Shown: one piece after another, positions 3,331 through 61,410 of the stretch
Numbering within the stretch: the first letter of the stretch is position 1
Layout: every line of letters starts with the position of its first letter
Origin: Candidatus Parcubacteria bacterium
GTDB taxonomy: Bacteria > Patescibacteriota > Minisyncoccia > UBA6257 > 2-01-FULL-56-20
DNA length: 64,000 nt
Assembly (NCBI GenBank): GCA_027450205.1
Contig: DAIDJL010000004.1
Coordinates: forward strand, 204,413-268,412
Reading direction: 5' to 3'
The notes under the pieces: generated by a model
Database searches by the model: none
What the model was told of the DNA's origin: nothing
What the model saw: only the letters and a program-made list of their open reading frames with translations
Program-made: the position numbers and the translations under genes

Positions 3331-3401
3331 TGGGAGATCGTCTAACGGTAGGACAGGGGCCTTTGAAGCCCTCAATCTAGGTTCGATTCCTAGTCTCCCA
3401 G
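3331..3401 (+). tRNA. tRNA-Gln (anticodon UUG)
   Basis: It folds as a cloverleaf. The acceptor is UGGGAGA/UCUCCCA, the T-arm is CTAGG-TTCGATT-CCTAG, and the anticodon loop cuUUGaa has U33 and A37. CCA is not encoded. Confidence 0.85.
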
Positions 3402-3486
3402 CAGTCTAGTACAAGGTGTTAAACGCCCAGGAAGGGTGGGTTTATTAAGGTTAATTTTTATTCCAAAAAAGATGTAAAATTAAGCC

Positions 3487-6400
3487 ATGGAAATTAAAAA
3501 TTTCAGCTTTTTAAAAGATGAGCCTATTACCCCGGGGACGGTTGGATATTTTGAGTTTTATCATAAATATTTTTCCCCGGCCCTAAAAGATATGATTCTC
3601 TCAGATTCATGTCCCCATACTATTGGACTTTTTAGTAAATGGGGCACTGGCAAAAGTTCGATCATTGATCAATTAAAAACTGATCTCCCTAAGAATATTG
3701 CAAAAGTTTTTATTTTTGACGCTTGGAAATATCAAGAAGATTCGCTGCGCCGAACCTTTCTTATTAAATTTGAAGAATTTCTAAAAAGAGAGGGGTACAC
3801 CATTCCACTGGACGCTCTTTCTGGTTTTTATAAGAATAGGAGCAGTTCTACTTCTAGAAGTGGAAATATAAATTCCGAAAATACTGTAAAGGGCTGGCGA
3901 AGAGTGGGTGCCTTTTTCAAATCATATTGGCAGGTTTTGGTTTTTTTGGTTTTGCCCTTAGTGATTTTAGGAACTTTTAACGTATTACTTGCCTATCACC
4001 CTAGCAATGATTTTTTAATTGGGGTTAAGAATTTTTGTGTTTATTTAACGACGCTGTCGTGGTTTGTTTTCTTTTTAAAGCCAGTAGCCGATAAATTTCT
4101 AGATAAAATTAGCGGGAACATTTTCGCTTCAACCAAACAATATACAGAAATTCGCACTCAGATCGAAGAAGAGGAAAGATTGAATTCTCCCGAACAATTT
4201 GAAGCTGTTTTTAATAAACTGATCAGCCATGTTGATGATAAATTAGTGATCGTATTTGATAATATTGATCGCGTTCACGGAGATGTCGCCCTAAAAACCC
4301 TCTCAACTATAAAAACCTTTTTGGATCCAGAAGAAAAATCTAAGGTTGTTTTTGTAGTTCCTTGCGACTCGGATGCAATAAACCAACAGATTAAGGCATT
4401 TTATAAAAATGAAATCGACGAAAATTTCGACGAGTCCGAATATCTCAAAAAGTTATTCAATGTGATTATATACACTCCAGAATTCATCGACGACGATATT
4501 TATCAATACGCAAATGACCTAATCGCGGAAACTGGAGATCTTAAAGATTTACTTTCAAATGAACAAATCTTTTTAGTTATAAAATCTGCATTTAAAAACA
4601 ATCCAAGAGAAATTAAGCAATTTATTAACAATCTCATTGCTGTAATACTAGTCGTTTCTAAAAGTGAAGTTTCAGAATTATTGTTAAATTCTGATGCAAT
4701 TGGTTTTTTAGCAAAAGTTACTGTTTTGAAACAAAAATTTCCTGAAGCTTACAAAAAATTAAAGGAGAATTGGAGCGATCCACAAGGCGTATTAAGCGAA
4801 CATTCGAGTTCTAATTTAAAAGATTTTTTAACTTTAACGAGTGTTGTTACAACTAATAACGCTGAACCATATATCTATTTTAAGGCTCCACAAATAGAAA
4901 GAGATCTCAATGATTCTGTTGGTATTCGAAAAACATTAATCGAAGGAAATGTCGAAGAATTTGAAAAACTTGCCGCAACCGAAACAAAGAAAGATAAATT
5001 AATTCGTTTTATTGGCAGACTTTTATCTAATTACAAGTCTCAGCCACTAATTTTATTTCAAATTTTTAAGACACAGTTACAAGGATTGGCGGATTTAAAT
5101 GAACAAAGTTCTGCTCCAGACTTTCTCAACAACTGCATAGATGCTATTGAAGCAATTTGGAATAATTACCTGAAATTACCTCCAGGTCTGATATTTGATC
5201 TTTTAATAAAGAGCAATGATCACAAAAGGCGAGAATCAATCTTTGATCGCTATGTTCTTGCCCTAGGTACGGAAGAAATAAAGATCGAAGAAAATAAAAT
5301 ATATCTTCATGATTTAATCAATGAATTAATTAGGAATGAAAGATACCTTACTGCTACTCACCAGCTAGCAATTATGGATGCGATAAGACAAAATCTGGTC
5401 GGGCGAGACGATATTTTACTTCAATTCACCACCCTAGACATTCAAACAAAATTTATAGCTCCTGAGAATCTTAGGAGGATAATTCAAGAAGCTCTAAATA
5501 ACAGAACATTGAAGCATTATTTGGCTATTTTAGATTTATATAAAGAATATATTGGTGTTAATAACTTAGGTCCAAATCTTATCAGTCGGATACCTCAGTT
5601 GATTTCTTTAGAAAATAGCGAAATGCCGAATGCATCACCACGAAAACTTGAGTTTCACGATGCCCTTCTACAAATATTTACCAATTTTGCCAGTTATATC
5701 AAAGATATTCCTCCGGCTCAACAACAAGAAATATTCAATGGTTTGAATACTACCTATCAACAAGTCGGACAAGATCAGTCGATCCTTGCCAAGATAACGA
5801 ATTCCCTTCGTTGGCTCTCGTTAAGGACTACTGACGCTAATACAAAAACCCAGGCAGATGCAAAGGTTAATGCCTTTATATCTCAAGTCGATGGAACCGG
5901 TATGAAGTTGACCTTGAAATACTGGAGTTCAAAATCAAAGATAGCTTTTATAAATAATTACTTTGATTCCATTAAAGCGAGGGCTAATGTAGACGATTCT
6001 GTTCTTATGGAGGTATACGAAGTGGCCGATGAAAGCCAAAAAATAACTTTGATTGATTACATTATAAAAAATCGAGGCGATTCCGGTCTCGGATTCCTAC
6101 AAAAAATTGGTAACTCCCTACCGGATCGAATTAAAATTATCAACCTACTTTTATCAAAAGCTGAGGTGTTAGCCATTCAAGATAGAAAAGGTATTTTTGA
6201 CTATCTGCGAAACAAAATAGATGGAAATGATGACGCGACAGTAAAGCAGACCGCCATTAAGGAGTTCTTAAATTTCCTAAAATCTAAGAATCAAGATTTG
6301 ATTCAATTTGGTACTAGCTTGCTTAACGAACCGTTTTTGAATGATTCCGATCATAGAGAAATCACTAAAGAAATGTTGGCGTTTTACAATAACCCCCCCG

Positions 6401-6762
6401 ACATTCTTCAAAAACACGATCTTAGTTTTATTGACTATTTAATTCGGATAGAAGCGAAACTCCAAAACCCTCTAAAGGAAACTCTTGTATATTTAATTTT
6501 TAAAAATATTAGTCCAGACAGACCTTTTGAAATTATCCCCGCATTAATAGAAGATATCTCCTTGCTCAAGCCTAATTCTGATAAATATGAAAAGGATTAT
6601 AGTGATTTAATTGGGCGTGTAAGCGCATGGACTCCTCCAGATCAAAAGCTCCTCATAGTTCAGCAATTAAACGAGGCCATGAAAGGCATTCCGGGTAAAA
6701 AAACTAAGGATTATATTGCGATCCTAGAAAAACTTGTAAGTGCTGAGAAAGAAGCTAACTAA
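3487..6762 (+). CDS. KAP-family P-loop NTPase (1091 aa) with a large C-terminal alpha-helical domain
   Basis: The Walker A is KAP-type, IGLFSKWGTGKSS. Two TM helices are inserted into the NTPase domain. The Walker B is LVIVFDNIDRV. The gene is very AT-rich. Confidence 0.8.
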   Translation: MEIKNFSFLKDEPITPGTVGYFEFYHKYFSPALKDMILSDSCPHTIGLFSKWGTGKSSIIDQLKTDLPKNIAKVFIFDAWKYQEDSLRRTFLIKFEEFLKREGYTIPLDALSGFYKNRSSSTSRSGNINSENTVKGWRRVGAFFKSYWQVLVFLVLPLVILGTFNVLLAYHPSNDFLIGVKNFCVYLTTLSWFVFFLKPVADKFLDKISGNIFASTKQYTEIRTQIEEEERLNSPEQFEAVFNKLISHVDDKLVIVFDNIDRVHGDVALKTLSTIKTFLDPEEKSKVVFVVPCDSDAINQQIKAFYKNEIDENFDESEYLKKLFNVIIYTPEFIDDDIYQYANDLIAETGDLKDLLSNEQIFLVIKSAFKNNPREIKQFINNLIAVILVVSKSEVSELLLNSDAIGFLAKVTVLKQKFPEAYKKLKENWSDPQGVLSEHSSSNLKDFLTLTSVVTTNNAEPYIYFKAPQIERDLNDSVGIRKTLIEGNVEEFEKLAATETKKDKLIRFIGRLLSNYKSQPLILFQIFKTQLQGLADLNEQSSAPDFLNNCIDAIEAIWNNYLKLPPGLIFDLLIKSNDHKRRESIFDRYVLALGTEEIKIEENKIYLHDLINELIRNERYLTATHQLAIMDAIRQNLVGRDDILLQFTTLDIQTKFIAPENLRRIIQEALNNRTLKHYLAILDLYKEYIGVNNLGPNLISRIPQLISLENSEMPNASPRKLEFHDALLQIFTNFASYIKDIPPAQQQEIFNGLNTTYQQVGQDQSILAKITNSLRWLSLRTTDANTKTQADAKVNAFISQVDGTGMKLTLKYWSSKSKIAFINNYFDSIKARANVDDSVLMEVYEVADESQKITLIDYIIKNRGDSGLGFLQKIGNSLPDRIKIINLLLSKAEVLAIQDRKGIFDYLRNKIDGNDDATVKQTAIKEFLNFLKSKNQDLIQFGTSLLNEPFLNDSDHREITKEMLAFYNNPPDILQKHDLSFIDYLIRIEAKLQNPLKETLVYLIFKNISPDRPFEIIPALIEDISLLKPNSDKYEKDYSDLIGRVSAWTPPDQKLLIVQQLNEAMKGIPGKKTKDYIAILEKLVSAEKEAN

Positions 6763-8089
6763 TTTCATCGAGCATAATAGTTTTTTCGATTAAAACTAAC
6801 TTTGATTTGATTGTATTTAATAGTTTCCTCTTTTCGGGTATCGATCCATCTTCAAGAATATATTTGCTGTAATTTCTAATATCGATATCTTTAGCTCTGC
6901 AATCTTCGATCGATCGACCAAGAATATTGAAGTGGAATTTTTTATGTCGCTCAATTTCCAATTCAAGGTTTTTTCTGATGCCAGATCGATCTAAATCAAT
7001 TTTATTGATTAATTGAACCAATTGGTTAATTAGAGAGCGTTCTTCAATATAGAATTCCTTACAATTAATGTCCTTGGCACGGGTACATCCATAGTAAATA
7101 TATTTTGAGACTTCTCCATTTTTAAGTTTTTTATATTTATCCTGCGCCGTAACCCCTGAGCCACATTTCCCACAAAACATTAATTTCGTAAAAGCGAATT
7201 CCTTGTTAACTCTCGGCGCCTTCCGCTGAAGATCTAGCTGCTCCTGCGCTTCGTCAAAAAGCTCTTTAGAGATGATCGGCTGATGTTTGCCCTGATACCA
7301 TCTTCCGCTTCCCCGTGGATATTCAAATGTGCCGTGATAGAAATGATTATTAAGCAACGTGTAGACATTGCTAATGGTAAATGACTTTCCGTTTCGTGAT
7401 ACAAAGCCCGTTTCTTTGAGCCAGCGATATATCTTCCGGCCACTCCAGCCACCGTGAGCTACTTTCGTAAATATCTCTTTCACGATAGGAGCGCGGATCG
7501 GATCGAGGAATATCTGTCCTTTCTGGTCGACGTTCTTTGAGTTGAAATATCCCGTGGGAGCAACCGACGGCCAGAGTCCCATCTCGCACTTTGTTTTGAG
7601 CCCTCGCTTCACATTGATGCTCTTGTTGTCATTCTCTAGCTTTGCTTGAGAACCGAGAATCATGAGCAGGAATTTCTCGTTTGGATTATTCGTAAATCGC
7701 TGGCTGTGGGTTTTGATTTCGATGAGCTTCTTTTGGTCGAGAAGATCAACGAGGGCGCCGAGGTCACCGGCGTTACGACTCAAACGATCGGGATGCCACA
7801 CAAGAATGGCGTCGAACTTCCCCTCCCGGATATCCGCGAGGAGCTTATTGAATACTGGGCGCTGCCCACAGTCTTTGGCCGAGTGGGATTCCTTATAAAT
7901 GTCGATTACGTTCAAATTGTCCCGTTGGGCCACAAGTAGCATCTCTTTGGTCTGGGAATCGATCGACAAGGCCTGTTTTTCCTCCGCCTCGCTCGATTTA
8001 CGGGCATACAGGCAGTATTGGAGGGGTTGTGCCGTAACTGGCTGTGGACCGCTTATTTGGGCTCCCTGCAGTGGTGTTGTATATTCCAT
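6755..8089 (-). CDS. Large serine recombinase (resolvase/integrase family)
   Basis: A YARKSS catalytic-Ser region, a DRLSRN motif, a recombinase domain and a C-terminal zinc ribbon (CGKCGSG...YYGC) are present. Its 3' end overlaps the KAP gene convergently by 8 nt. Confidence 0.9.
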   Translation of the reverse strand: MEYTTPLQGAQISGPQPVTAQPLQYCLYARKSSEAEEKQALSIDSQTKEMLLVAQRDNLNVIDIYKESHSAKDCGQRPVFNKLLADIREGKFDAILVWHPDRLSRNAGDLGALVDLLDQKKLIEIKTHSQRFTNNPNEKFLLMILGSQAKLENDNKSINVKRGLKTKCEMGLWPSVAPTGYFNSKNVDQKGQIFLDPIRAPIVKEIFTKVAHGGWSGRKIYRWLKETGFVSRNGKSFTISNVYTLLNNHFYHGTFEYPRGSGRWYQGKHQPIISKELFDEAQEQLDLQRKAPRVNKEFAFTKLMFCGKCGSGVTAQDKYKKLKNGEVSKYIYYGCTRAKDINCKEFYIEERSLINQLVQLINKIDLDRSGIRKNLELEIERHKKFHFNILGRSIEDCRAKDIDIRNYSKYILEDGSIPEKRKLLNTIKSKLVLIEKTIMLDEIS

Positions 8090-20323: not shown

Positions 20324-20513
20324 CGATGTATAAAATAATGCTATATAATAGTTAAGAACTTTAACAATGTCTTCCTCCTGCGGCAAGCCCCGCCTGCCGC
20401 AGCGGCGACCCGCATGACCAACCCGCGAGGCCTTCCGCAGGAGGACGGCCGCACATAGTGTGGCGCAGCAAGTCGAGCTGTTCAACTAACACTCCTTCCC
20501 TGCGAGCACTATC

Positions 20514-23903: not shown

Positions 23904-24009
23904 AGAAGGCCGATAATAGCTATTATTTTAAGAGTGAGCGCGCTTGAGCCATTTCGCTTATTATTATAGGCGTGTTATAAAGACACTAGATTCATGTGGA
24001 GGAAAATCT

Positions 24010-24120
24010 ATGGAATGGGCGCCTGAAGTCATTGAATATTTTATCTCTCTTCGCCGTCAAATTGAACAAGGACGAACAAAAGAAGCCATGACCTCGCTTG
24101 ACCACCGACGAAACGATTAA
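24010..24120 (+). CDS. Small ORF (36 aa) with a GGAGG RBS and a downstream terminator
   Basis: GGAGG lies 7 nt upstream of the ATG. A terminator hairpin follows at 24147-24172. Confidence 0.25.
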   Translation: MEWAPEVIEYFISLRRQIEQGRTKEAMTSLDHRRND

Positions 24121-24146
24121 GGAAAACACAGAAAACGTATGCGGGA

Positions 24147-24172
24147 GGGGCATCGAAAATGCCCCTTTTTTA
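24147..24172 (+). terminator. Rho-independent terminator (GGGGCATCGAAAATGCCCC followed by a T-run)
   Basis: Read directly. Confidence 0.4.
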
Positions 24173-24186
24173 TTCCTGTTCGCGGG

Positions 24187-24303
24187 GTTGCTGTTATTCT
24201 GGGCTTTTGAAAGGCGTCTCGGAGCCGCGAAGGTGGCGAGAGCCGAGGCGGCCAGCCAGCAGGTTGGAACGCCGTACTTTCAAAAGCCCAGAATAACAGC
24301 AAC
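24187..24303. ncRNA. Unclassified structured element, copy 1. A conserved 63-nt core (24214-24276) is enclosed by a 27-bp perfect stem, extendable to ~30 bp.
   Basis: The stem GTTGCTGTTATTCTGGGCTTTTGAAAG/CTTTCAAAAGCCCAGAATAACAGCAAC encloses a core that is 53/63 identical to copy 2. Internal hairpins show compensatory changes. Confidence 0.45.
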
Positions 24304-24524
24304 CCCCCACTCGGGTCGAAAGCGAGGGAGGGTTTGCTCTATTTATGCATGATATATTTTATTCCTCTATTCATTCCGCCCTCTGGCGGCCCATATATTT
24401 CTGTGATTTTTTATTTTCCGCGACCTTTATCCCCCTTTTTTGCGCCGGCAATCTGTTTATGATGGCCGGTTCATGAGTTAATACATCATCTCATTTTCTT
24501 TATTTCACTTCCTTCCGTAAATGA

Positions 24525-52103: not shown

Positions 52104-53138
52104 TTATAACAATTGGACCTCTTCTTCGAGTGGAATGCGGAACTTCCGGCGTACCTCGGACTTTGCCAGGGTAATGAGACGGGCGACATCCACGGATCCG
52201 GCGTCAAGCACATTCACGATAAAGTTGGGGTGCTTTGGCGAGATCATCGCGCCGCCCGCGCTCACACCACGCAAACCGGATTCAGAGATCAGCTTCCCCG
52301 CCGAGATGACCGGGAACGGATCTGTCTTTACCGAGAACTGCGAACCTTTGAGTGCGAGCCCGAGGTCGCGGAGCGCTTTCTCATACCTGACACTCCCCTT
52401 CCTGCACACCGCGTGAAGCGGAACATTTTTGAATATGCTTCCGATGTTCGGATGCTCAAGCGGATGGTGCGCTTTGCGATATCGGATCCTCTCCTGTATT
52501 ACTTTTGTGATCTCTTTTTTATTTCCCTTCGCAAGCGCGAACGTCACCGATAGGACTATCTCCGCGCCGTTCTTCTTTTTAAAAATGCTATGGCGATAGG
52601 CAAATGCGCACTGCTTTGCCGTTCGCGTGACGACCTTCATTTTTTTGACGTCAAAGCTCCGCACCGATGCGACGGTATCCTTTACCTCCCCGCCAAAGCA
52701 ACCGGCGTTGCCGCGGATCGCGCCGCCGACGGTGCCCGGCAAGCCGCCGGCCCACTCAAGCCCGGCGAGCGACCGTGCCGCCGTACGCTTCAAAAGATCG
52801 GCCATCAACACTCCTGCACCGACCATGACGGTGCTCCCCTTCACGGTAATATCTTGGATAGCCGGACGGAGAACCAATCCGTCAAAACCATTGTCACCGA
52901 TCAAAAGGTTCGTTCCGCCGCCAAGAATAAATACTGGCAGCCGCCGTTTCTTTGCCTCTTTGACCGCCCATTGCACGTCTTTTTCGCTCTTGGCTTCAAA
53001 AAAAAAGCGGGCAGGCCCGCCGATCTTGTAATGACTGAACTTTGACAACGAAATATCCTCCTTAAATTTTGGCATATAGTAAAAAATATGTTTATCCGCG
53101 TGGCTCTGCTCCAGGCAAACAAAAACCGCTCCGCCCAA
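52104..53138 (-). CDS. murB: UDP-N-acetylenolpyruvoylglucosamine reductase
   Basis: An FAD-binding GGGTNLL and the MurB C-terminal domain are present. Confidence 0.9.
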   Translation of the reverse strand: MGGAVFVCLEQSHADKHIFYYMPKFKEDISLSKFSHYKIGGPARFFFEAKSEKDVQWAVKEAKKRRLPVFILGGGTNLLIGDNGFDGLVLRPAIQDITVKGSTVMVGAGVLMADLLKRTAARSLAGLEWAGGLPGTVGGAIRGNAGCFGGEVKDTVASVRSFDVKKMKVVTRTAKQCAFAYRHSIFKKKNGAEIVLSVTFALAKGNKKEITKVIQERIRYRKAHHPLEHPNIGSIFKNVPLHAVCRKGSVRYEKALRDLGLALKGSQFSVKTDPFPVISAGKLISESGLRGVSAGGAMISPKHPNFIVNVLDAGSVDVARLITLAKSEVRRKFRIPLEEEVQLL

Positions 53139-53349
53139 GACTCAAACAATGAGATCCGCTTAATGTGCTGGGCGGAGCGGCTGTGGTGACCTCCGGTTCT
53201 GTTTGTATTGAACGAGTGCTCAATCAGCCACTCCACGATAAGTATAGCAAGTATTGAAATTGAAGCAAAATAAGAATTCTCTTTATTCATAAGACCGCTC
53301 AATTTTTAGACGAGGAAAGGAATATCGACGAAACATAATTGAGCGGTCT

Positions 53350-57207: not shown

Positions 57208-58008
57208 ATGGCCGAAGACCAATATCTTGATATCCTCGTTTCGTTTGAGCCGATTTTTAAGCAGGCCGCCGAGCTCGCGTGCGATTTGAGGAATAAAGTC
57301 TCGTCCTACAACAAATCAGAGACGGGCGTCGGGGCTCTCGACATCGTCACCGAGGCCGACCTGCAGGTCCAGGAATTCATCCTTTCAAAGCTGGCCGACA
57401 CTTCCCTCGCCGAGTGCGAGCTGATCGCCGAAGAAGCCACGCCGTCCGTTTCCCGATTCAAAGGGACGAACGGATTGGTGCTCACGATCGACCCAATCGA
57501 CGGCACGGCGATCTACGTGGATGGAGGAAACTATTTTTCGCTGATCATCGGTATGCACAATAAGAAGGACCTGCTCTATACCTATTACCGCTATCCCCTG
57601 CTTGGATGGACCAAGCGGATAGTGAAGGATTGTGCGGAAGACATCGGCGATGTGCCCGAGATGAAGACCAAGCCGGGCATCGACCCGATGCGCGTGATTG
57701 CGTATCTATCCCACGTAAAACCGGACGCGCTGCCGCCAGAGATCGAACAAAAGCTTGCGGCGGGAGGATTTTCCGTACATGGCTATAAGGACATTTTTGA
57801 CGAAGGCACCATGACCGCGCTGCTCTATGGCGGAAAGATCGCCGGCATGTGCATGCAAAACCCGGTCGCATATGATTGTTTGGGGTGCCTCCATTATGCG
57901 CAAGCAGCGGGCGGCTTTGAAATCTATTCGACTGTGAATCTTTCGGAGCCGACCAAGGGGCCGTTCGGGATATATTATCCCGGATTGTATGTCGTATGGA
58001 AAAAGTGA
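57208..58008 (+). CDS. Inositol monophosphatase-family (IMPase/FBPase/CysQ-like) phosphatase
   Basis: DIVTEADLQVQEFI and LTIDPIDGT motifs are present. Start taken at MAEDQY. Confidence 0.8.
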   Translation: MAEDQYLDILVSFEPIFKQAAELACDLRNKVSSYNKSETGVGALDIVTEADLQVQEFILSKLADTSLAECELIAEEATPSVSRFKGTNGLVLTIDPIDGTAIYVDGGNYFSLIIGMHNKKDLLYTYYRYPLLGWTKRIVKDCAEDIGDVPEMKTKPGIDPMRVIAYLSHVKPDALPPEIEQKLAAGGFSVHGYKDIFDEGTMTALLYGGKIAGMCMQNPVAYDCLGCLHYAQAAGGFEIYSTVNLSEPTKGPFGIYYPGLYVVWKK

Positions 58009-58042
58009 GGGTTACGGCGTTCAAATCCCTACAATAATAAAC

Positions 58043-58155
58043 AAATATTTATCTTTCCTCTCGTAAAGGTGCCTCGGAGGTACGAAGGTGCCGAGAGCCA
58101 AGGCGGCCAGCCAGTAGGCTGGAACGCCGTCCTTTACGAGAGGAAAGATAAATAT
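58043..58155. ncRNA. Unclassified structured element, copy 2. A conserved 63-nt core (58068-58131) is enclosed by a 25-bp perfect stem, extendable with one bulge.
   Basis: The stem AATATTTATCTTTCCTCTCGTAAAG/CTTTACGAGAGGAAAGATAAATATT differs from copy 1, while the core is 84% identical. A/T-rich tracts flank it on both sides. Confidence 0.45.
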
Positions 58156-58184
58156 TGTTTTTCTTAAATGTTATTCCTAAATCC

Positions 58185-59861
58185 CTAATAAGCATTACTA
58201 CACGCATAGGTTCCATCAGGGTTATTGTATCCTAGATAATAACTCCCTGGACCAACATCGTTTTGACATATTTGGCTTATATCTACACACGTACCATTAC
58301 TATACGCATAGCCAGAATCACACGCACAAGAATTTGTGCCAGCATTATAGTTCGCGCCATATCCCTCTGTATCCGTGCAGTAGGTATAACCCGAGACGCA
58401 TTGGCCGCCATACATGATATATCCAGTGTCGCACACACAATTATATTGACCACTACTACTATAAGTACCGTCCCACGTTTCATTTGGATAAGCCTGGGCA
58501 CATACCTGATAACCAGTTTCGGGAGGCAGCTCAACGCACGCGGTATCGTCTGAATTCCAGGTGTATCCACTCTGACATCCGCAAACGATCCCACCCTGAC
58601 TATTGTTGTTCGTATAGTCGCTGTTTACCCCATATTGATTTTGGCAAATTTGATCATTGGTCAATGTGACGCGTTGACGCGCGAGACTCACTGATTGAAT
58701 ATAGCCAGTCCCAGCAGTAAGACCTGAGACACCGAGCGTTGGTATACCCAAATCACAACTGCTCTTATCTAAGATAGCAAGTCCTCCAGAATTGCCGTGA
58801 TCAATGGCTCCATCAAACTTATAAATCGGCCCTGGGGTTTGGCCAGATATTGTTCCCTGTGTTACCGTCTCTGATACATTCAGATAATTGCCGGACGCTG
58901 GATAGCCAAAGATAGTTACGCTGTCACCGTTATCCACATTAGAACACCCTGAACCAATTCCCGTAAGAGATGTGTCATTGATTACCGGAATTGAAGCCAA
59001 TGGCGCTGATGATGAAACTGATCCATCAAGAGTAAAATCCGCCACATCTTCAGATGTGTTGGGGTCGTAATTATAGCTATGAAAGCTAAGTTGATAACCC
59101 CCAGAATCAGCGTTTATTGAAAAATCTGGCGCAGGCCCAGGATAATAAGCAAGACATGTCGGTGATCCTCCCCCCGTGTTTTCTCCATTATAAACATGAT
59201 AATTTGTTTCGATATAATTGGTCCCGCCATAGTCAACTGAAACACCAGAGCCGTAATCAAAACTACCTCCGGAATAATTTGGCGGAAAACAAGCCACAAG
59301 AACGACGGCTGGTTCTATTTGACTGATAAAAGATGTCGTAATGTTCGAATTTGTATTACCTAATACACTTTGTGACCCCTGGTTTATGGGTTGCGCACTT
59401 TGTTGTGATATACCGTTCGGCAAATTTCTGCTTTCATTTGAAGTTGTAGTTGCCGCAGCCGAAACAGCATTAACTGTGTCACTTGAAGTAGTACTAGATC
59501 CTTGAGAAGAATTCAGGCCAGACGAAATTATACCCCAAAGAATGGCAACCGCTATTATCAACCCTATGACTGTGGTGAAAACGGCTGCGGGAGAGAATGA
59601 TTCTTTGTCTGTATCAATAACGCTGGCTGTGCCATCAAGCGTAGATGTTTTATTGTTTGAAACATCCGATTCTTTTTCAGAAGGAGTCGATTGGGTAGAA
59701 TTTAATTTTTCATTATTATTCCCAACCTCTTTTTTATCCTCAACACGAGAGATTGAGCCCACATCTTTTTTATACCCACCTTCAACATCTCGCGGCTTGC
59801 CGCAAGTCTCACAAAATTTTGCATCAGGCTTAAATTTTGCACCACAATGCTTGCAGAACAT
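58185..59861 (-). CDS. Membrane-anchored trypsin-like serine protease with an N-terminal CxxC...CxxC zinc ribbon and C-terminal Cys-rich (C.C..GY) repeats
   Basis: The zinc ribbon is FCKHCGAKF...CETCG. There is one TM segment. The S1-like domain carries HVYNG and DHGNSGG. The repeats are CGCQSGY, CVCDTGY and CACDSGY. The gene is AT-rich. Confidence 0.55.
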   Translation of the reverse strand: MFCKHCGAKFKPDAKFCETCGKPRDVEGGYKKDVGSISRVEDKKEVGNNNEKLNSTQSTPSEKESDVSNNKTSTLDGTASVIDTDKESFSPAAVFTTVIGLIIAVAILWGIISSGLNSSQGSSTTSSDTVNAVSAAATTTSNESRNLPNGISQQSAQPINQGSQSVLGNTNSNITTSFISQIEPAVVLVACFPPNYSGGSFDYGSGVSVDYGGTNYIETNYHVYNGENTGGGSPTCLAYYPGPAPDFSINADSGGYQLSFHSYNYDPNTSEDVADFTLDGSVSSSAPLASIPVINDTSLTGIGSGCSNVDNGDSVTIFGYPASGNYLNVSETVTQGTISGQTPGPIYKFDGAIDHGNSGGLAILDKSSCDLGIPTLGVSGLTAGTGYIQSVSLARQRVTLTNDQICQNQYGVNSDYTNNNSQGGIVCGCQSGYTWNSDDTACVELPPETGYQVCAQAYPNETWDGTYSSSGQYNCVCDTGYIMYGGQCVSGYTYCTDTEGYGANYNAGTNSCACDSGYAYSNGTCVDISQICQNDVGPGSYYLGYNNPDGTYACSNAY

Positions 59862-59921
59862 CTTGAGGAAATTGTAATTTACTCTTAACTCTTATTCATA
59901 TCTAGTATTCATTTGATTGAA

Positions 59922-61019
59922 TTAATATCCCATCGCTTCTGCTTGTATATCCTCGCCTTCTTTTTGTGCCGATGCGGCGCAATCCATTGTATTCTGCTCG
60001 GCTTGAATACCTTGCTCGCCCTCTCCGAGTGAAAGTGTTACCGATGAACATTGCTCGTTTTGTGTTTGTTCAGATTCAATTTGAGCTTCTATGCTAGAAG
60101 CGATCCGAATAGCATTGTCGATTTTTTGCTGATTTTGAGCGTCTTGCAAAGTAAGCTGCGCGGCACTCAATTGCGAACTATAGGCCAGGTTAAGATTATT
60201 TTGTTCGCCCTGCTCCTCCTCAAGTGGTATCCCCCTTCCCTGCATATCGGCCAAGTCTTGAGCATATTGTTTTTGAAGGTTTTCAAGATTTTGTGCTGAA
60301 GTATTAACTGCAGTAATATCGAAATTCAGATAGCTTGTGTTTGGCTGAAAAGTCACCGGCTGCGGCGTATAGGTTTGCTGTGGCATAGGAGTATTGTAAT
60401 TTACAGTTGGCTGCGAATATGTCTCAGGCGCGGAGATAGCTAAAGCATTTCGCAGCGTGAACGAACCGCCGTCGGGATTGGTGACGGTGACACCATATGT
60501 CCCCGCTGGGAGCGATCCAGTATAGTTTACCGAAATGGAATTTGGCGAAACATCGTTAGGGTTTAATTTTACGAGACCTCCAATCATCAAAACCGCGCCA
60601 CTTTGAAAACCACTACCTTCAATTGTAAGAGTAAGAGAATTTCCCTGGATTATAATAGCTGGATTGATATAACTAATGGATGGGGATGAAATGGTAGGAC
60701 TCGTGGTTGCAACCGGTACCTCTGGAGGGACACTAACGACGGCTTGTTTTTGTGAAACTATTATTGCTTGTGGCTGCTTTGATGGCGCAGCCACTGAATT
60801 AATGGGTGGAGCTACGGATATTTTTTCGATGGGCCGGGTTGTAGCTATTGTTCCCGACGACGATGTTGAACTTGTCGTTTGAACTGCGATTTGAGAATTC
60901 GAGGTAGCGGGAATTATTGGAATAGTTTGGGGCGTTGCAGAAACGAGTCCAAAAAGAGCGGCTAGGCCTACAAATGAAACGATTGTTTTATGGAGAAGCG
61001 AACCGAAGAAGTTAAACAT
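59922..61019 (-). CDS. Secreted IPT/TIG-domain protein with a Gln/Glu-rich coiled-coil C-terminus
   Basis: It has a signal peptide and an IPT/TIG-like segment PSISYINPAIIIQGNSLTLTIEGSGF...VTVTNPDGG. The gene is AT-rich. Confidence 0.5.
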   Translation of the reverse strand: MFNFFGSLLHKTIVSFVGLAALFGLVSATPQTIPIIPATSNSQIAVQTTSSTSSSGTIATTRPIEKISVAPPINSVAAPSKQPQAIIVSQKQAVVSVPPEVPVATTSPTISSPSISYINPAIIIQGNSLTLTIEGSGFQSGAVLMIGGLVKLNPNDVSPNSISVNYTGSLPAGTYGVTVTNPDGGSFTLRNALAISAPETYSQPTVNYNTPMPQQTYTPQPVTFQPNTSYLNFDITAVNTSAQNLENLQKQYAQDLADMQGRGIPLEEEQGEQNNLNLAYSSQLSAAQLTLQDAQNQQKIDNAIRIASSIEAQIESEQTQNEQCSSVTLSLGEGEQGIQAEQNTMDCAASAQKEGEDIQAEAMGY

Positions 61020-61335
61020 TTTTTATTCTTCATTTTCCCGGCTGGGGAGCAAAAAACTCCCAGCCAGTAATGGCCCGAAGGCCACCCTATATCCCTTTCG
61101 AGATATGGCCCATCAAATGCGCTCTGACTAGGGGCTTTTTACCTTTGACGGAACTTTGACCAGGCCGCCGATTATTCGACGGTTTAGGCGACTTATTAAA
61201 TTGTGCTTTTATTTTGCCACTTATCCCTAAAAAAGGGAAGTTTCGCTGATTGAAGAAGTATCGATTTTTAAACCGGCAGAAAATCCAGCAATGGCAAGCT
61301 CTTTCGAGCCTTCTGGCAAAGAAAAATTAACTTCG

Positions 61336-61410
61336 TACCACCATCGGGATTTGAACCCGAGTTCCCGCCGTGAGAGGGCGATGTCCTAGACCAGGCTAGA
61401 CGATGATGGC
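61336..61410 (-). tRNA. tRNA-Glu (anticodon CUC)
   Basis: The reverse complement folds as a cloverleaf. The acceptor is GCCAUCA/UGGUGGU with 2 G-U pairs. The T-arm is TCGGG-TTCAAAT-CCCGA. The anticodon loop is CUCUCAC with U33 and A37. Confidence 0.75.

Follow-up and report, generated by a model that had tools for sequence, protein, structure and literature searches.

Three-way-junction-capped extragenic hairpins with arms that evolve in concert form a conserved family in Patescibacteria

The DNA analysed here is a window of 64,000 nucleotides (nt) from a Candidatus Parcubacteria bacterium, a member of the Patescibacteria or candidate phyla radiation (CPR) (GenBank assembly GCA_027450205.1, contig DAIDJL010000004.1, positions 204,413 to 268,412 of the forward strand). 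It contains two copies of a long hairpin that encloses a structured core, and this element, in particular its second copy (copy 2, 58039-58161), is the subject of the present study. Copy 2 sits in a 176-nt gap separating two convergent genes, which encode an inositol monophosphatase (IMPase)-family protein and a protease-like protein. An earlier note, made from the sequence alone, had placed the element between these two genes, and the gene ends at 58008 and 58185 bear this out. The two copies and the features around copy 2 are the following.

24184-24306, plus strand: copy 1, with arms at 24184-24213 and 24277-24306 (30 nt, 100% complementary, 63 nt enclosed)
57208-58008, plus strand: IMPase-family gene (266 amino acids from ATG), whose transcript would enter copy 2 in sense orientation
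58032-58042, plus strand: A-rich tract caataataaac at the 5' base of copy 2, U-rich after the hairpin on the minus strand
58039-58069, plus strand: 5' arm of the long stem P1 of copy 2, locus-specific, its last bases AAAGG belonging to the semi-conserved proximal stem (from inverted repeat and fold)
58070-58100, plus strand: P2 hairpin of the core of copy 2 (from alignments with pair counts)
58101-58130, plus strand: junction A, P3 hairpin and junction dinucleotide GU of copy 2 (from alignments with pair counts)
58131-58161, plus strand: 3' arm of P1 of copy 2 (from inverted repeat and fold)
58157-58170, plus strand: T-rich tract at the 3' base of copy 2, GTTTTTCTT..., with gtttttctt at 58157-58165 (from the sequence)
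58185-59861, minus strand: 558-amino-acid gene with a zinc-ribbon N-terminus and a serine-protease-like GNSGG motif, the first gene of an AT-rich block

The arms of copy 2 (58039-58069 and 58131-58161) are 31 nt each, are 94% complementary and enclose 61 nt. Folding of the region 58030-58170 as RNA yielded -70.4 kcal/mol, compared to -30.9 ± 3.6 kcal/mol for shuffled sequences (z = -10.9). Within the arms lies a 25-nt stem, AATATTTATCTTTCCTCTCGTAAAG, at 58044-58068, the exact complement of which is located at 58132-58156. Neither this stem nor its complement was found elsewhere in the window when up to 3 mismatches were allowed, and 0/100 shuffles gave a match. The stem that had been drawn at 58043-58155 in the earlier note is real, but its coordinates were off by one base and the inverted repeat is slightly larger; the A-rich tract on its 5' side and the T-rich tract on its 3' side are both present at 58032-58042 and 58157-58165.

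The matching architecture that had been proposed for the two copies was likewise recovered. Their cores are related (nhmmer E = 3.8e-8, about 85% identical over 63 nt), whereas the sequences of their arms are unrelated. When searched with a covariance model of the family, the window returned only these two copies, at 103 and 100 bits, followed by a next match at 18 bits. Two further hairpins in the window (20373-20445 and 53119-53187) show a similar architecture of a stem capped by a branched loop, with arms of 12-21 nt and 31-nt loops that fold into small hairpins. They were rejected as family members, as their cores are unrelated; they scored 18 bits (20373-20445) and 8.8 bits (53119-53187) with the family model.

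The anatomy of the core was derived from a hand alignment of 23 copies and subsequently from a model-based alignment of 117 copies, 93 of which are distinct. The core of about 63 nt (61-63) is a three-way junction formed by the long stem P1 and by P2 and P3. P2 starts with a covarying junction pair (U-A, C-G or A-U) and a G-C pair, followed by a one-base mismatch, the helix CUC/GAG, an internal loop GGA/GA, a 5-bp helix and a loop of the form G-N-A-G. In copy 2, these parts are the junction pair U-A, G-C, an unpaired C, CUC/GAG, the invariant GGA/GA, GGUAC/GUGCC and the loop GAAG. P3 is composed of GGCG/CGCC, a bulged G, a 6-bp helix, a loop AG-Y-A and an R-A bulge, which in copy 2 read GGCG/CGCC, bulged G, CCAGCC/GGCUGG, AGUA and AA.

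The pairing of this structure is preserved by compensatory change. In the large alignment, 96.1% of the paired cells hold a pair, compared to 38-46% if the partners are slid by 1-3 columns. Both sides change in 27/33 pairs, and the covariation score is 0.494 versus 0.166 in shuffles; none of 500 column shuffles reached any of the observed pairing measures. Covariation extends to columns 2-14 of P1, and in P3b, CG, GC, AU and UA replace one another at 4/6 pairs. The unpaired purines, among them GGA, GAAG and GA, are 97-100% conserved across the 93 distinct copies and survive even in copies with only 53-66% overall identity. Covariation and conserved unpaired nucleotides, which generally mark structured RNAs, are hence both found in the element, and the same pairs would form in single-stranded DNA. 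Purifying selection acts on the core as a folded strand.

Other origins of the core sequence were considered and rejected. It can be read as an open reading frame (ORF; for example ...ERCLGAAKAARAKAAGQQTGTPSFQ...), and spurious ORFs running through the core made up the top 'neighbour' clusters. A protein-coding core was dismissed because the variable positions are paired and compensatory, not synonymous. The words GGCGGCC, AACGCCGU and GCGAGAG as well as a three-way junction are shared with 5S ribosomal RNA (rRNA); the helices come in a permuted order, and no match was obtained with the Rfam 5S model, so that the likeness is regarded as coincidence. A seemingly longer, 'autonomous' form of the element (L002, L005, L035, L040 and L047; L-numbers are locus labels) encloses no ORF and merely has an enlarged P3 with about 22 extra nt. 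This variant, also present at L108, L129 and L135, contains the string …CCAGCCAGCAG-aCGCGACTCTTAGGAGTCCCGTGG-GAGAACGCC, in which the 5' half of the normal P3 helix is kept and its partner strand is replaced. Copies with an enlarged P3 neighbour highly expressed translation genes: the copy at L005 directly follows tuf, that at L035 directly follows secY, and that at L002 lies upstream of infA-rpmJ-rpsM.

When one genome per species was scanned with a 19-base core pattern, 55 loci were obtained, 26 of which have a complete core inside a long hairpin; the remaining loci are chance matches in GC-rich genomes. All 26 true members belong to metagenome-assembled genomes (MAGs) of Paceibacterota, Minisyncoccia, Parcubacteria or Saccharibacteria or to unclassified MAGs labelled 'uncultured bacterium'. 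With the strict pattern, five MAGs carry 3-6 loci each and four others carry one each. A metagenome scan provided at least 80 loci, mostly from peat, and the family counts given here are based on the genome scan together with these metagenome loci. Among the loci listed, the covariance model identified 117 instances (93 distinct, about 39 independent loci), all of which are from CPR/Patescibacteria genomes or peat metagenomes. The element is present in multiple copies in genomes of about 0.9 Mb. No copy was detected in plasmids and phages by BLAST, and three scans of viral contigs returned only one chance match of 9.4 bits inside a phage gene. Thus, among everything scanned, the element is a multi-copy family of extragenic hairpins that occurs only in Patescibacteria. 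The earlier note had staked its view on conservation of the core motif in relatives, and on this point it stands decisively, the motif being kept in more than 90 distinct copies.

Apparently, this hairpin family is uncatalogued. With Rfam 15, the whole window gave only two transfer RNAs (tRNAs) and a LOOT RNA at the gathering threshold, the region 57950-58250 gave only a spurious SNORD10 match at E<=10, and the long-P3 variant of L040 gave nothing at E<=10. None of the Rfam models for self-cleaving ribozymes (hammerhead, twister, twister-sister, pistol, hatchet, hairpin, HDV-like) matched at E<=10. Kinship with the LOOT RNA of the window was rejected, as LOOT has a different structure. A literature search on LOOT and on hairpins, palindromes and repeats of CPR/Patescibacteria, which included a term search within Weinberg et al. 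2017 (PMC5737381), did not reveal a description of the element. Taken together, the more than 90 distinct copies, the strong covariation, the near-invariant unpaired purines and the retention at the same locus across diverged genomes identify the hairpins as a selected, structured element.

Retention at the same locus is best seen for copy 1, which has orthologs at L053, L066, L127 and L133. L053 is syntenic with 23.8-31.6 kb of the window at about 72-74% nucleotide identity and carries the copy 1 ortholog. Between genomes with about 73% gene identity, the core of this ortholog shows 12/63 differences, 11 of which fall into paired columns and one of which is the last junction position before the 3' arm. 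In contrast to the core, the arms vary greatly within the family. P1 has a median length of 31.5 bp (10th-90th percentile 20-52 bp, maximum 64 bp; 92 non-redundant complete copies), of which the proximal approximately 12 bp are semi-conserved (GCTTTTGAAAGG...CCTTTCAAAAGC in many copies), while the distal remainder is specific to each locus. Substitutions in the arms are nearly always mirrored in four ortholog pairs (L054/L037, L046/L044, L023/L039 and L048/L011). In a five-genome series of copy 1, TCTGGG/CCCAGA, TGTGGG/CCCACA and CCTGAG/CTCAGG are seen together with mirrored 1-bp insertions or deletions. The arms are therefore free to change provided that both change together, and the family as a whole is a new, conserved and CPR-restricted family of three-way-junction-capped extragenic hairpins whose arms evolve in concert.

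Two further comparisons concern the orientation of the core and the origin of the arms. Between L009 and L054, both flanks are collinear and the arms homologous, and the cores are reverse complements of each other, indicating that the spacer has flipped. At L037, a second copy is located within an insertion of about 260 nt that is absent at the orthologous site in L054 and L009; there, the stop codon of the neighbouring gene is immediately followed by a canonical terminator. The distal 3' arm of this second copy overlaps the pre-existing gene end including the stop codon, and the 5' arm is an inverted copy thereof. In the insertion (within L037 3990-4450), the hairpin is separated from the canonical terminator by about 190 nt that are AT-rich and non-coding.

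Template switching during replication has published footprints (PMC8794818), namely perfect stems, compensatory changes of several bases, extension of stems and inversion of loops, and such footprints are likewise reported in portions of PMC8604942 and PMC13100816. Since the footprints in the element match the published ones, we infer that templated copying from one arm to the other during replication produces the arms, extends them and maintains their perfect pairing, and that the core is occasionally flipped in this process. Selection for pairing may act in addition. Concerted evolution within genomes was considered as well and rejected, as paralogs from the same genome are no closer in their cores than orthologs or non-orthologs, all at a core distance of 0.14-0.15.

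What the hairpins do can be approached from copy 2. The stem is followed by U-rich tracts on both strands (GUUUUUCUU on the plus strand, UUUAUUAUU on the minus strand), each 3' of a convergent gene, which makes a two-way transcript boundary between these genes the most economical and most likely local role. RNA polymerase would then terminate or pause at copy 2, and the stem would stay on the transcript as a protection of its 3' end. Long perfect RNA duplexes are expected substrates of RNase III, and the copy 2 stem may be targeted by this enzyme. For the family, we tentatively favour an explanation that we hold to be a little short of probable: the arms would serve as orientation-free transcript boundaries maintained by template switching, and the cap as a fast-folding or recognised module that nucleates the hairpin. 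A boundary effect would need the arms only and would hence work in either core orientation. Our preferred guess for the conserved cap is a fast-folding clamp or a recognition module nucleating the long hairpin in RNA and/or single-stranded DNA. Somewhat doubtful is the wider proposal that the cap is a new CPR-specific functional nucleic-acid module, which may be an RNA handle, processing signal or ribozyme or else a folded-DNA site for a trans-acting enzyme, and at the same time a 'palindrome seed'. Wherever such a cap lands, template switching would grow a long perfect hairpin from the local flanking DNA.

Several findings weigh against the transcript-boundary explanation. A T-run of at least 4 at the 3' base is present in 16/92 copies and an A-run at the 5' base in 21/92, and across measures the frequency of T-runs amounts to 17-26% of copies. 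T-runs occur at 17/66 of the sides where a gene reads into the hairpin versus 18/96 of the other sides (p = 0.33). Copy 1 and the copies at L049 and L027 sit directly after canonical short terminators. The split into co-directional, convergent and divergent positions matches the genomic background (p ~0.3), with no preference for gene 3' ends. The cap is asymmetric, with purine-rich loops on one strand, yet its orientation is near random, so that a purely cis-acting RNA role is hard to sustain. G.U pairs outnumber C.A pairs on the purine-loop strand, but this excess is weak both in the core (17:8, p = 0.11) and in the arms (52:39, p = 0.21). Finally, template switching is read from its footprints, and strong selection for pairing together with ordinary mutation is a possible alternative.

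The neighbour orientation was scored for 39 orthologous groups, 35 of which were scorable. Both neighbours lie on the opposite strand ('--') in 17 groups and on the same strand ('++') in 8, while 6 groups are convergent and 4 divergent; an avoidance of divergent intergenic regions was considered and is not significant compared to the baseline. The median gap is 98 nt to the upstream feature and 38.5 nt to the downstream feature. In line with a boundary role, some copies directly adjoin the tuf and secY stop codons, and others are placed between convergent tRNA genes, which at L048, L011 and L004 enclose the element exactly.

The same data bear on the possibility that the element is a plain bidirectional intrinsic terminator, in which case termination would be selected everywhere and the core would be a tolerated or loop-closing passenger insert. 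The layout of copy 2 would agree with this, as would the GC-rich outer stems with A- and T-runs at L047 and L005 and a plain canonical terminator at L137, which is placed about 20 nt after the stop codon of an IMPase ortholog, where the window carries copy 2. A consensus terminator scanner called no terminator at copy 2, which, with its 31-bp AT-rich stem and 63-nt loop, falls outside the usual short GC-rich stem and 3-8 nt loop. Most copies have no T-runs, and where T-runs occur they show no link to incoming genes. The genomes that carry the element also contain canonical short terminators, some of them directly preceding a copy, and 4/35 groups lie between divergent genes. Moreover, a passenger loop would not hold 97-100% identity at its unpaired bases across CPR classes. 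A plain terminator is therefore very improbable as an explanation of the family. The bidirectional terminator with a 63-nt insert that the earlier note had seen in copy 2 fits this copy, with its convergent genes, its U-tracts on both strands and the terminator at L137, but does not define the family, in which T-runs are the minority. Family-wide, the element is not a dedicated terminator.

In view of the strand asymmetry of the cap, the element might also be a small structured RNA gene in its own right. Its RNA, about 90-150 nt transcribed from the purine-loop strand, would use the cap to act in trans, for instance by binding a protein, as an RNA scaffold or as a ribozyme, and P1 would be a processing or stability stem. 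Almost all conserved unpaired positions are purines on one strand, where G.U is also commoner (17 versus 8 in the core), and the conservation across CPR classes is very high. The larger upstream than downstream gap, a weak antisense tendency relative to the neighbours (17 versus 8 groups) and the position of some copies directly after a canonical terminator point in the same direction. However, sigma-70-like promoters are not enriched upstream on either strand (3/37 and 1/37 versus about 10% in shuffles), the upstream flank is not conserved among the copy 1 orthologs, and most copies are devoid of a terminator-like T-run. The strand-bias statistics are not significant, and at L009 the core is inverted with arms and flanks in place, so that an external promoter would transcribe the other strand. 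We consider an independent RNA gene quite unlikely.

The region around copy 1 contains other candidates for non-coding function. Directly 3' of the hairpin, the block CCACTCGGGTCGAAAGCGAGGGAGGGTTTGCTCTATTTATGCATGAT (24305-24355) is 100% invariant in five genomes with 72-84% identical genes and is more conserved than the hairpin element itself. Further conserved islands extend to about 24520, namely a CCGCCC...GCGG hairpin, GCGACCTTT and CTTTnTTTCAC. No Rfam match was obtained for the conserved region from 24305 to about 24520, which may be an unannotated small RNA or regulatory region. On the other side, 23944-24175 holds a small ORF (58 amino acids, TTG start) followed by a textbook intrinsic terminator, GGGAGGGGCATCGAAAATGCCCCTTTTTT. 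About 10 nt separate the end of this terminator from copy 1, and the orthologous loci do not conserve the segment.

The genomic setting of copy 2 is variable. The IMPase-family protein of the window is 100% identical to a database protein (P0001), and its nearest named relatives are from Candidatus Taylorbacteria and other Patescibacteria. Six loci with IMPase orthologs (75-80% amino-acid identity) do not have the element anywhere, and the downstream synteny differs in each of them. These observations mark copy 2 as a lineage-specific presence at a variable junction, and due to the lost downstream synteny no clean empty site can be aligned for it. Defence-type genes occur at two IMPase-ortholog loci, SduA_C (Shedu) at L136 (5889-6152) and ThsB_TIR (Thoeris) at L141 (1714-2196), consistent with the IMPase neighbourhood being a variable region in these genomes with defence-type genes nearby. 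On its right, copy 2 borders on an AT-rich block with the following RNA genes.

61069-61190, minus strand: LOOT RNA (RF03000; 53.2 bits, gathering score 46.4), located on the same strand as tRNA-Glu and about 145 nt downstream of it
61335-61410, minus strand: tRNA-Glu

The GC content is 0.41-0.45 over 58-61 kb versus about 0.53-0.58 around it, and the earlier description of copy 2 as the left edge of an AT-rich block leading to tRNA-Glu is accurate, as the GC content drops over about 3 kb up to this gene. In all, two AT-rich blocks of the window adjoin tRNA genes, 58185-61335 (GC 0.41-0.45) at tRNA-Glu and 3400-7000 (GC 0.32-0.35) at tRNA-Gln (3331-3402), the rest being at about 0.55; both have the appearance of variable or acquired regions linked to tRNA genes. 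At its far edge, the tRNA-Glu block showed no direct repeat derived from a tRNA. The 11-nt sequence GTTCAAATCCC at 58019-58029, just upstream of copy 2, equals the T-loop region of the tRNA-Glu of the window in opposite orientation. It was the only match to an attachment-site repeat at the island edge, a possibility that was rejected in view of its wrong orientation and E = 0.12; the match could be due to chance or be a tRNA remnant.

Such a setting would also suit an element that acts at the level of DNA. Its cap, folded from single-stranded DNA or extruded as a cruciform, would be recognised in trans, and effects on transcription would be secondary. A host or selfish recombinase, a nuclease, a topoisomerase or a nucleoid protein are candidates for the recognising factor, and in its behaviour the element would resemble REP/BIME-type repeats, or else a mobile or recombinogenic site that is not autonomous. 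The junction can form from both strands, the core can invert, and orientation and intergenic class are indistinguishable from the background. Presence/absence polymorphisms are seen for the second copy at L037 (copy B) and for copy 2, which is absent at six orthologous loci and stands at the edge of the variable AT-rich block. The multi-copy state in genomes of about 0.9 Mb and core distances that carry no orthology signal (0.146 for orthologs versus 0.137 for non-orthologs) would fit as well. In 34 independent loci, however, neither a transposase, recombinase or reverse transcriptase nor any partner gene recurred near the copies. No convincing target-site duplication was detected either: 70/92 copies have no direct repeat at the junctions, and 9 have one of 4 nt versus 1 in the shuffle. 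In the viral contigs, phage records and plasmids searched, copies were not found. Same-site orthologs are kept across about 73% gene identity with their unpaired bases intact, unlike the decaying copies of MITEs (miniature inverted-repeat transposable elements), and conserved unpaired bases that are rich in purines would be expected of a functional RNA rather than of its complement. A bias towards one replication strand, suggested by a negative GC skew of the motif strand in 21/31 copies, was rejected, as it vanished per orthologous group (20/35, that is 20 versus 15; p = 0.5). On balance, a DNA-level element appears unlikely, and arms acting as transcript boundaries around a nucleating cap remain the reading that we prefer.

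The CPR/Patescibacteria make up a large share of bacterial diversity, and their regulatory and non-coding repertoire is almost unknown. The hairpin family offers an unusually clean natural case in which mirrored substitutions and indels, inversion of the spacer and growth of the arms from the flank are all seen around one conserved spacer, and it connects a mutational mechanism that is already known with the origin of long hairpins at transcript boundaries. If the cap does act as a 'palindrome seed', minimal CPR genomes would gain transcript boundaries in this way. If it has a partner protein or a catalytic activity, it would open a way into the RNA or DNA metabolism of organisms that cannot yet be cultured on their own.

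Among known systems, bidirectional intrinsic terminators resemble copy 2 in being hairpins flanked by A- and U-tracts between convergent genes. Their stems are GC-rich and of 5-14 bp with loops of 3-8 nt, whereas copy 2 has an AT-rich stem of 31 bp and a structured 63-nt loop, and most family members are without U-tracts. Template-switch hairpins (Monttinen & Loytynoja 2022, PMC8794818; portions of PMC8604942 and PMC13100816) display the four footprints that are seen in the element as well. In the portions considered, these studies treat a process of mutation in rRNA, microRNA and promoter repeats, and a dispersed family with a common conserved structured spacer as its seed is not described there. 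The skipping-rope, drum, DUF3800-I and FuFi-1 motifs of Weinberg et al. 2017 are, according to the relevant portions of that paper (PMC5737381), conserved structured RNA candidates that, like the element, are not located in 5' untranslated regions and are associated with terminators. As presented there, they precede a separate terminator and are tied to particular genes, while the motif of the element lies inside the hairpin and has no gene association; the Rfam models of these four motifs did not match the element. From invertons, the element is set apart in that its core inverts over evolutionary time, but consists of 63 GC-rich nt without promoter hexamers and has no recurrent recombinase nearby.

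The closest parallels are found among dispersed palindromes. REP, BIME and REPIN sequences of Proteobacteria (PMC3733652) are, like the element, multi-copy, extragenic and hairpin-forming in either orientation, REPINs also forming long hairpins, and REP-type repeats have proposed roles in termination, mRNA stabilisation and DNA topology. Unlike the element, REPs and REPINs have conserved arms with a terminal GTAG/CGTC tag, are maintained by a RAYT transposase and have an unimportant loop; in the element, each independent locus has its own arms, and it is the loop, a 63-nt three-way junction, that is conserved. A RAYT-like gene was not encountered beside any of the copies, neither in the 64-kb window nor in the loci of 8-15 kb. 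MITE-type repeats (Neisseria Correia, ERIC/IRU, RUP/BOX) are similarly short and intergenic, form long transcribed hairpins that can terminate or process transcripts and show presence/absence polymorphism. MITEs have family-wide terminal inverted repeats and target-site duplications, whereas the terminal repeats of the element differ per locus, no clear duplication is present and orthologs are kept across deep divergence. Integron attC sites share with the element that structure rather than stem sequence is recognised or selected, and that strand-asymmetric folded hairpins of about 60-140 nt are formed. Compared with the attC boxes R'' (RYYYAAC) and R' (GTTRRRY), copy 2 has ...TAAAC / GTTTTTC at its base, of which GTTTTTC departs from GTTRRRY. 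Arrays beside an integrase, as known for attC, were not seen among the copies, which are dispersed. While attC sites have conserved R''/R' at the base and a variable centre, the element has a conserved centre and a variable base. Its logic is thus the inverse of that of REP/Correia-type palindromes and attC sites, namely a conserved structured centre between arms that are free to change.

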